IMG/VR virus record: IMGVR_UViG_2660238573_000002
Length of the DNA stretch: 7,540 nucleotides
Source: a virus
Lineage: Duplodnaviria; Heunggongvirae; Uroviricota; Caudoviricetes
Direction: 5' to 3' (one strand)
The notes below the pieces were generated by a model. It did no database searches. It had not been told where the DNA came from and was given only the letters and a program-made list of their open reading frames with translations. Positions within the stretch are counted from its first letter, which is position 1, and each line of letters begins with the position of its first letter. Below, in pieces: positions 5,260 through 5,320 of the stretch. The position numbers and the translations under genes were made by a program.

Positions 5260-5320
5260 TCTTGAACGGAAATTCTCAAGACTTGAGTCTTGCATGCAAA
5301 TCAATTCCTGGATAAACTCG
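5260..5320 (+). promoter_or_regulatory. Cluster of dyad symmetries and candidate promoter upstream of the 173-aa ORF
   Basis: TCTTGA-N10-TCAAGA (5260-5281), perfect palindrome CTCAAGaCTTGAG (5275-5287), perfect palindrome TTGCATGCAA (5290-5299). Possible -35 TTGCAT (5290-5295) with -10 TAAACT (5313-5318). The promoter assignment is weak. Confidence 0.3.

Follow-up and report, generated by a model that had tools for sequence, protein, structure and literature searches.

We analyzed a stretch of 7,540 nucleotides (hereafter, the window) from the Caudoviricetes record IMGVR_UViG_2660238573_000002 of IMG/VR, and in particular a nest of palindromes directly upstream of an open reading frame (ORF) of 173 aa, ORF173, known in phage Sp5 as ECs1184. 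Judged from its sequence, the window is the immunity region of the Shiga toxin 2 (Stx2) phage VT2-Sakai, or Sp5, of Escherichia coli O157:H7 Sakai, with which it shares 99.9% identity, as it does with about 40 sibling Stx phages. Its plus strand carries cI (4196-4849), ORF173, the 40-aa ORF H0092, a terminator, oL/pL and N, and its minus strand carries cro, cII, O and P. The nest is located between cI and pL, a slot that holds rexAB in lambda. The features discussed here are listed in Table 1.

Table 1. Features around the palindrome nest and in the neighbouring part of the window; positions are counted from the first letter of the window.
Feature	Position	Strand	Remark
Decayed DUF3024-family gene (frameshifted, internal stop)	4859-5195	+	Context only; from tblastn
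Intrinsic terminator, stem 5220-5230/5235-5245 plus T-run	5220-5250	+	Marks where the ORF173 cassette begins; conserved
Distal half-site copy GATCTTGA (AATCTTGA in the closest relatives)	5258-5265	+	Left arm of TCTTGA-N10-TCAAGA; overlaps GATC
TCTTGA (5260-5265)-N10-TCAAGA (5276-5281)	5260-5281		Inverted repeat
13-bp palindrome CTCAAGaCTTGAG	5275-5287		Overlaps the core dyad
Core dyad CAAGACT-TG-AGTCTTG, 7-nt arms	5277-5292		Proposed operator; hexamers AAGACT (5278-5283) and AGTCTT (5286-5291)
10-bp palindrome TTGCATGCAA	5290-5299		−35 hexamer plus four spacer bases
Predicted sigma-70-type promoter of ORF173: −35 TTGCAT (5290-5295), 17-bp spacer, −10 TAAACT (5313-5318)	5290-5318	+	
GATC (Dam site)	5320-5323		Directly after the −10; conserved in relatives
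Ribosome-binding site AGAGAGAGAG	5338-5347	+	Precedes ORF173
ORF173 (= H0093 = ORF23 = ECs1184), 173 aa	5351-5872	+	Gene served by the promoter; candidate regulator
Small ORF H0092	6046-6168	+	Likely 3' end of the cassette, with the terminator
Downstream terminator 6174-6195 plus T-run	to 6205	+	Likely 3' end of the cassette

An earlier note had described three palindromes in this nest. All three were found, and the nest does begin right after a terminator, as had been claimed, 10 nt past the T-run of a strong hairpin. The note overlooked both the strongest dyad and the overlap of the nest with the −35 hexamer of ORF173. According to a repeat finder, the longest dyad is CAAGACT-TG-AGTCTTG, whose right arm runs into the TTG of the −35 and whose axis lies at about −41 relative to the predicted start. 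The half-site CTTGA, said to recur four times, occurs exactly only three times as CTTGA/TCAAG (5261, 5276 and 5282), and the fourth copy reads CTTGC (5289). A recurring half-site is real; the unit conserved among relatives, however, is AAGAYT/ARTCTT, which overlaps CTTGA. A TGAGTC direct repeat also lies here, with copies 40 bp apart at about −41 (5284-5289) and at the predicted start (5324-5329); it is confined to promoters of the Sp5/Salmonella type and is partly present in the relative L016.

We measured palindrome density as three inverted repeats (arm ≥6, spacer ≤12) within 45 bp and compared it with dinucleotide shuffles. No place in the window exceeds the density of the nest, which only the ori iterons equal; 8.7% of whole-window shuffles reached the same density. 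Within the 100-bp intergenic stretch the same density gave P = 0.015, and the 7-nt arm by itself gave P = 0.14. The other palindrome- and repeat-dense spot, at about 2760-2900 in the O gene, corresponds to the annotated ori iterons, which are already known. A literature search found no mention of the palindrome sequences, and ECs1184 itself turned up in just two papers.

About 40 cassettes from genomes, phages, metagenomes and IMG/VR were then compared (relatives are cited by L number). We found that conservation covers only part of the nest, of which relatives keep the core AAGACT/AGTCTT. The 13-bp palindrome is 11 bp long in Salmonella phage Oslo, is broken in L007 (TCAAGACCCGA) and reads TTAAGaCTTAA in Cronobacter; it is probably for the most part a by-product of two abutting hexamers. 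The 10-bp palindrome TTGCATGCAA (of which TTGCATATGA is a designed mutant version) is lineage-specific and probably incidental, because its counterpart is not palindromic in the closest relative, Oslo (84% identical), and in Salmonella, where it reads TTGCATATGAA; elsewhere the spacer is unconserved. TCTTGA-N10-TCAAGA pairs the distal near-copy GATCTT (5258) with the left hexamer. In the closest relatives (Oslo) its arms are kept, but its spacer is rewritten and one base shorter (N9), which argues against a rigid dimer across it.

The nest overlaps a conserved sigma-70 promoter that very probably drives ORF173. Because a strong terminator lies directly upstream, ORF173 needs a promoter of its own. 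In the window the two hexamers, spaced by 17 bp, match the consensus at 7 of 12 positions, with TTG in the −35 and A2 and T6 in the −10 present. Of the 44 homolog upstream regions scored (33-100% protein identity), all but L135 have the pattern TTGnnn-17/18-TAnnnT at 25-35 nt from the ATG (43 regions; L074 lay outside the scored set), so that both the spacing and the distance to the gene are conserved, as in a sigma-70 promoter. The homologous promoter of Proteus, TTGCAA-17-TAGAAT, passes the promoter scan, and in our alignment A3 the CTTG at the −35 makes up the invariant columns of the upstream part. Transcription is predicted to start at 5325/5326, which corresponds to about 1,256,577 on the minus strand of NC_002695.2. 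A differential RNA sequencing (dRNA-seq) and Term-seq data set of Sakai is available (GSE143631; Sy et al. 2020, PMC7547250), and the ECs1184 protein has been recovered from a Sakai lysogen by TRAPP, which captures RNA-associated proteins (PMC7618764).

The Dam site GATC is also concentrated in these promoter regions. It was the top 4-mer palindrome in the 110 nt upstream of 25 family representatives, with 46 copies against 8.7 expected (5.3-fold). Most copies are in or beside the core promoter. In clade A they directly follow the −10; a second clade has the site inside its −35 (TTGATC), and in a third clade it adjoins the −10. The window has one copy at 5258-5261 and one after its own −10, where 13 of 14 examined relatives with ≥64% identity keep CGATC (it is absent from L016). 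This enrichment suggests Dam-sensitive expression or GATC-containing operators.

We analyzed the hexamer AAGAYT/ARTCTT in relatives of at least 52% identity, using 17 promoter regions of 74 nt anchored on the −35. These contained 41 copies, compared with 2.3 in shuffles (18-fold), and the adjoining coding sequence contained about 0.06 per 74 nt. The hexamer recurs two to four times around the promoter in nearly every one of these relatives. Nearly all have a copy fused to the −35 (A[G/A]TCTTG, position −4), and in most of the clade A/B homologs a second, inverted copy lies at −11/−12. Other positions are lineage-specific, namely −31 (Sp5 type), +5 and +11 (inside the spacer), −17/−32 and −13/−38. 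At −31 relative to the −35, L002, L007 and L144 have AATCTT, the equivalent of GATCTT at 5258 in the window. L147 has a dyad AATCTT/AAGATT inside the promoter spacer, L152 has GAAGATTT-N7-AAATCTTC upstream, and in L017 a perfect palindrome of 16 bp, AAGACTGATCAGTCTT, is found at the −35, with another copy directly next to the −10.

The dyad itself is kept in Sp5, Oslo, L007, L010, L095, L014, L017 and L150, and is weak or absent in L003, L012, L016 and L107. In a test of the best inverted repeat upstream of the −35, P ranged from 0.004 to 1 per lineage, and a rough Fisher combination by hand gave about 0.004. Across the 60.9-kb phage genome the hexamer is rarer than expected (37 copies vs. 60), and only at the core dyad do two hexamers fall within 16 bp. 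A search of the VT2-Sakai genome for the dyad (≤2 mismatches, spacer 0-12) gave 4 matches against 3.0 in shuffles, which offers no regulon. The nearest other phage match to the left half of the dyad, CAAGACTTACTTTTG at about 3899-3913 in the 3' end of the minus-strand gene cro, has 2 mismatches to the dyad pattern and is probably due to chance. The exact 16-mer occurs at 54 loci in IMG/VR (2.9 million viral contigs); among the 26 readable loci, 10 were the same cassette, 16 were unrelated coding sequence, and none was a second regulatory context.

The hexamer motif tracks the clade of ORF173, and neither the cI allele nor the host. Promoter regions are near-identical beside unrelated cI/cro in two pairs of relatives (L007 and L008; L004 and L006), which shows that the motif is not tied to CI. 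As the earlier note had held, it is also unrelated to the annotated CI operators of Sp5 (AAGTACATAT-type, at OR and OL): with operator positions taken from AP000422, no match to the 17-bp CI/Cro operator of the AAGTACATATnGTAcTT type was found with ≤5 mismatches in 5200-5360. Homologs of 33-46% identity keep the promoter with a palindrome at or just upstream of the −35, often with a second copy near the −10. Their repeats differ, for example TTCATCGA/TCGATGAA, CGATCGATCG and, in E. coli phage SH2026Stx1, AACGATCGTT; in SH2026Stx1, whose homolog is 40% identical, and in other distant clades the repeats are of the CGATCG type and the architecture is retained.

A repeated element that is enriched over background and placed over a core promoter is what is expected of an operator, and we consider it likely that the hexamers are a protein-binding one. 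The suggestion in the earlier note of a dedicated regulator site thus survives for the hexamer, with its enrichment and its association with the ORF173 clade, and does not extend to the unconserved TTGCATGCAA or to the N10 dyad, which shifts to N9; binding itself is put forward as a prediction. The fuller reading, that the nest is the promoter-operator of the ORF173 cassette with a cassette-specific regulator, most likely ECs1184, has in our view about an even chance of being right.

In this reading, the nest (5258-5299) would form the upstream half of a promoter-operator region that serves a self-contained cassette between cI and pL. RNA polymerase would use the −35 and −10 given in Table 1 and start near 5325. 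The regulator would bind AAGACT (5278), AGTCTT (5286) and the distal near-copy GATCTT (5258), and so occupy the −35 region. Such binding could activate or repress, because a dyad axis at about −41 corresponds to where lambda CI sits at OR2 with respect to PRM. The relatives with additional copies over the spacer and the −10 suggest that at least some family members repress. ECs1184 would be the most plausible binder, which would make the circuit autoregulatory, and its tethered-domain architecture could tolerate the variable spacing and orientation of hexamers among relatives. What we observed directly are the sequence features, their conservation, the enrichment of the hexamer and the similarity of fold, and from these we infer the start site, the binding of a protein, its identity and the sign of regulation.

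ORF173 consists of a core-binding-like N-terminal domain (~95 aa), a disordered linker of ~25 residues and a small C-terminal domain. In the structural model, the N-terminal domain folds like the core-binding domain of tyrosine recombinases, its four-helix fold superposing on the N-terminal/core-binding domains of integrases. No functional family was found for ORF173 in Pfam, PHROGs, PADLOC, NCBIfam or a PDB sequence search, and a Foldseek search of BFVD gave no matches. One metagenome annotation names a homolog 'XerD', a mis-call from the core-binding-like domain. ORF173 is the only gene always linked to the candidate operator. Our identification of ECs1184 itself as the binder of the hexamers is tentative.

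Mondal et al. (2016, PMC5155283) were unable to delete ORF23/ECs1184 from an Sp5 lysogen and proposed that it plays a part in stable lysogeny. A second Sp5 ORF, ECs1180/H0090 (6932-7183), was reported in the same paper to be undeletable. We considered it as a partner of ORF173, but it does not co-occur with ORF173 in related prophages and has no family match, and the two probably form no pair. Of 5,426 complete E. coli genomes, 234 carry ECs1184, and those listed are nearly all O157:H7.

Several observations weigh against the promoter-operator reading and against ECs1184 as the binder. The cluster of palindromes alone is suggestive, not compelling, and the statistics from the window only are weak. 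The window hexamers of the promoter fall below the 9-of-12 threshold of the promoter scan. The test of the best inverted repeat was significant in some lineages only, the hexamer counts are inflated by shared ancestry at −4 and −11, and the copy at −4 may partly be ordinary −35 context (tcTTG). ORF173 is acidic throughout (pI 4.85; net charge of the N-terminal domain −4), an uncommon property in proteins that bind specific DNA sequences. TARNLKNS, the most conserved motif of the protein, stays the same in clades with differing repeats, and the C-terminal domain has no informative fold match. Finally, in a PNK RNA-crosslinking assay the ECs1184 signal was at background level (PMC7618764).

It may be asked whether there is only a promoter here, so that ECs1184 is constitutively expressed from a weak sigma-70 promoter and the palindromes and hexamers are inherited sequence and chance. 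The shuffle results for the window, the lack of conservation of TTGCATGCAA and of the N10 dyad, the absence of a significant dyad in several homologs (L016, L107 and L003) and the overlap of the −4 hexamer with −35 context all point in this direction. However, the 18-fold enrichment arises at positions and orientations that differ between lineages, with depletion elsewhere in the phage, and distant clades have perfect 16-bp palindromes of other sequence at the same place. We regard this explanation as rather unlikely. Another idea is that a host transcription factor conserved in Enterobacterales binds here and couples ECs1184 expression to host physiology. The same hexamer and cassette occur in prophages of Escherichia, Salmonella, Cronobacter, Yersinia, Proteus and Morganella, ORF173 is acidic, and a dyad axis near −41 is at the classic site of class II activators. 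Scans for consensus sites were negative or trivial for CRP, FNR, RcsB, MetJ and CytR, and no IHF match lay within the palindromes. No LexA box (CTGT-N8-ACAG) was found with ≤2 mismatches in 5200-5360, and a CII-type promoter (TTGC-N6-TTGC straddling the −35) was rejected, since only the first TTGC is present and neither the window nor the homologs have a second repeat. The 16-mer occurs in no other regulatory context at the readable loci, and the diverged homolog in SH2026Stx1, another E. coli O157 phage, has different repeats. Since repeats differ within one host species, a host factor is argued against, and we hold it to be unlikely.

A site that is acted on as DNA, either a junction of recombination and module exchange or a core-type site for a recombinase-like protein, would agree with the mobility of the cassette among lambdoid phages, with homology breakpoints near the terminator, with the core-binding-domain fold of ORF173 and with a deletion in E. 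coli strain 150 that ends nearby. However, ORF173, at 173 aa, has no catalytic domain and is core-binding-like only, the breakpoint falls at the hairpin (5223) and the strain 150 deletion joins short AGAGA repeats, both outside the palindromes. The dyad has 7-bp arms and a 2-bp spacer, in contrast to the inverted 9-13-bp arms and the 6-8-bp overlap of tyrosine-recombinase core sites; this explanation is very improbable. Overlapping inverted repeats could in principle also pair as an RNA hairpin or attenuator, an antisense terminator or a cruciform. The best fold was −5.6 kcal/mol, no better than shuffles on either strand (z = +0.77 on the plus strand and −0.30 on the minus strand), and an Rfam scan of the window gave nothing relevant, so the region was rejected as an intrinsic terminator or structured RNA. 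In addition, the loops would be only 1-2 nt, and the region sits between a strong terminator on its upstream side and the predicted start on its downstream side. A role as nucleic-acid structure is hardly credible and already close to refuted.

In function, the locus resembles autoregulated promoter-operators, either of the lambda PRM/OR2 or of the antitoxin type, placed in a moron-like cassette. In lambda, a CI dimer at OR2, centred at about −42, overlaps the −35 of PRM and exerts positive and negative autoregulation on the downstream gene. Similarly, in the immunity region of the lambdoid phage Sp5 a dyad of about 16 bp overlaps the first −35 bases of the promoter of the next gene, and the relatives L017 and L147 have extra copies over the spacer and the −10. 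Unlike OR2/PRM, the ORF173 site is unrelated in sequence to the CI operators of its phage, its half-sites vary in spacing and orientation among relatives, and the putative binder is no helix-turn-helix/S24 repressor. Phage repressors with a recombinase fold are known in MrpR/YopR (SPbeta) and SroF (phi3T). ORF173 differs from them in having only a core-binding-like domain plus an unrelated small C-terminal domain, in being acidic, in coming from Gram-negative lambdoid phages that already have CI, and in showing no sequence homology to them.

Like phage morons, and in the position of rexAB and sieB, the ORF173 cassette is an autonomous, terminator-flanked unit with its own (predicted) promoter between cI and pL, which is expressed in the lysogen and exchanged among phages of different immunity. 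Unlike these, ORF173 is reported to be undeletable rather than accessory, and it matches no PADLOC defence model. A comparison with type II antitoxins that autoregulate through their operators is entirely speculative: palindromic repeats lie over the promoter of a two-gene unit, ORF173-H0092, whose first gene is undeletable and encodes a folded N-terminal domain, a disordered linker and a small C-terminal domain. Against it, ORF173 and H0092 are separated by a gap of 174 nt, neither matches a toxin or antitoxin family, and in several lineages no H0092 was found downstream.

The hairpin of the upstream terminator has a folding energy of −15.9 kcal/mol (z = −4.1), and 0 of 200 shuffles were as good. 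We propose that it insulates the cassette from pRM transcription. The same hairpin, GGTCGCAGArrTGCGGCC followed by a T-run, precedes ORF173 homologs in lambdoid prophages whatever the cI allele, and the homology between Sp5 and Oslo begins exactly at it. In AP000422 the 6174 hairpin is labelled the 'pRM terminator', and the stronger, widely conserved hairpin at 5220-5250 has no annotation; it is more likely that the latter ends the cI transcript. The order of the cassette would be terminator, promoter region and ORF173, often followed by H0092 and a terminator. In lambdoid prophages of Salmonella, Cronobacter, Yersinia, Proteus, Morganella, Serratia and E. coli, the ORF173 homolog lies between a cI-type repressor and N. 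Two homologs have non-lambdoid contexts, L017 with neither cI nor N nearby, and Yersinia phage YP3 beside an excisionase gene and gin.

A natural variant occurs in E. coli strain 150 (L143, NZ_CP028592), which has lost terminator, palindromes and promoter together through a clean deletion of 138 bp, equivalent to about 5205-5342, that joins short AGAGA repeats. The deletion fuses ORF173 with its ribosome-binding site to the cI-proximal region. Among 235 E. coli records with the cassette, this one alone had it. The deletion fits one dispensable transcription-boundary unit, provided that ORF173 is still transcribed.

In most relatives other than Sp5, an additional segment of about 70 nt, absent from the window, is inserted between the hairpin of the cassette and the promoter of ORF173; carriers are L004 (2773-2826), L010, L095, L150, L003, L014 and L012. 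The insert contains a TTGACG promoter overlapped by the LexA-box-like CTGAATTCATATACAG, which we take to be similar to the ssb LexA box, and in L004, L010, L095 and L150 a terminator follows directly. The insert could specify a tiny RNA under SOS control or feed an attenuated SOS signal into ORF173.

The seemingly empty 370 bp from cI to the hairpin is, by its sequence similarity, a decayed DUF3024-family gene. With tblastn, the intact gp21 of SH2026Stx1 matched it at 81-85% identity in two frames with one in-frame stop, and intact copies lie at the same position in L003, L014 and L144 and in Proteus, Morganella and other prophages. An 80-aa minus-strand ORF (5191-5433) was rejected as a gene; it is purely mechanical, and its frame is broken by a 1-nt indel in Oslo. 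H0092 (phrog_21154; motif HVNxYERIRxGxLEHVCEHxRSRPH) accompanies ORF173 in many lineages and is the more strongly conserved of the two, with 97.5% identity in Salmonella (ORF173, 78%) and 79% in L135 (ORF173, 37%). It was not found downstream of ORF173 in several lineages (Proteus, Morganella and Serratia).

Sp5 is the Stx2a phage of E. coli O157:H7 Sakai, and ECs1184, next to its cI, is uncharacterised. Our analysis defines a predicted promoter of ECs1184 and a short candidate operator motif, which give a handle on the timing of its expression and on what may bind there. ECs1184 might be the founding member of a family of stand-alone transcription factors made from a recombinase core-binding domain, binding AAGAYT hexamers over its own promoter and acting as a second, CI-independent regulator of lysogeny maintenance in lambdoid phages, including Stx phages. 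We rate this as rather unlikely; if true, such a core-binding-domain regulator would explain why ECs1184 is undeletable from Sp5. The finding bears on whether a second regulator besides CI aids the stability of Stx prophages, and hence on toxin release.
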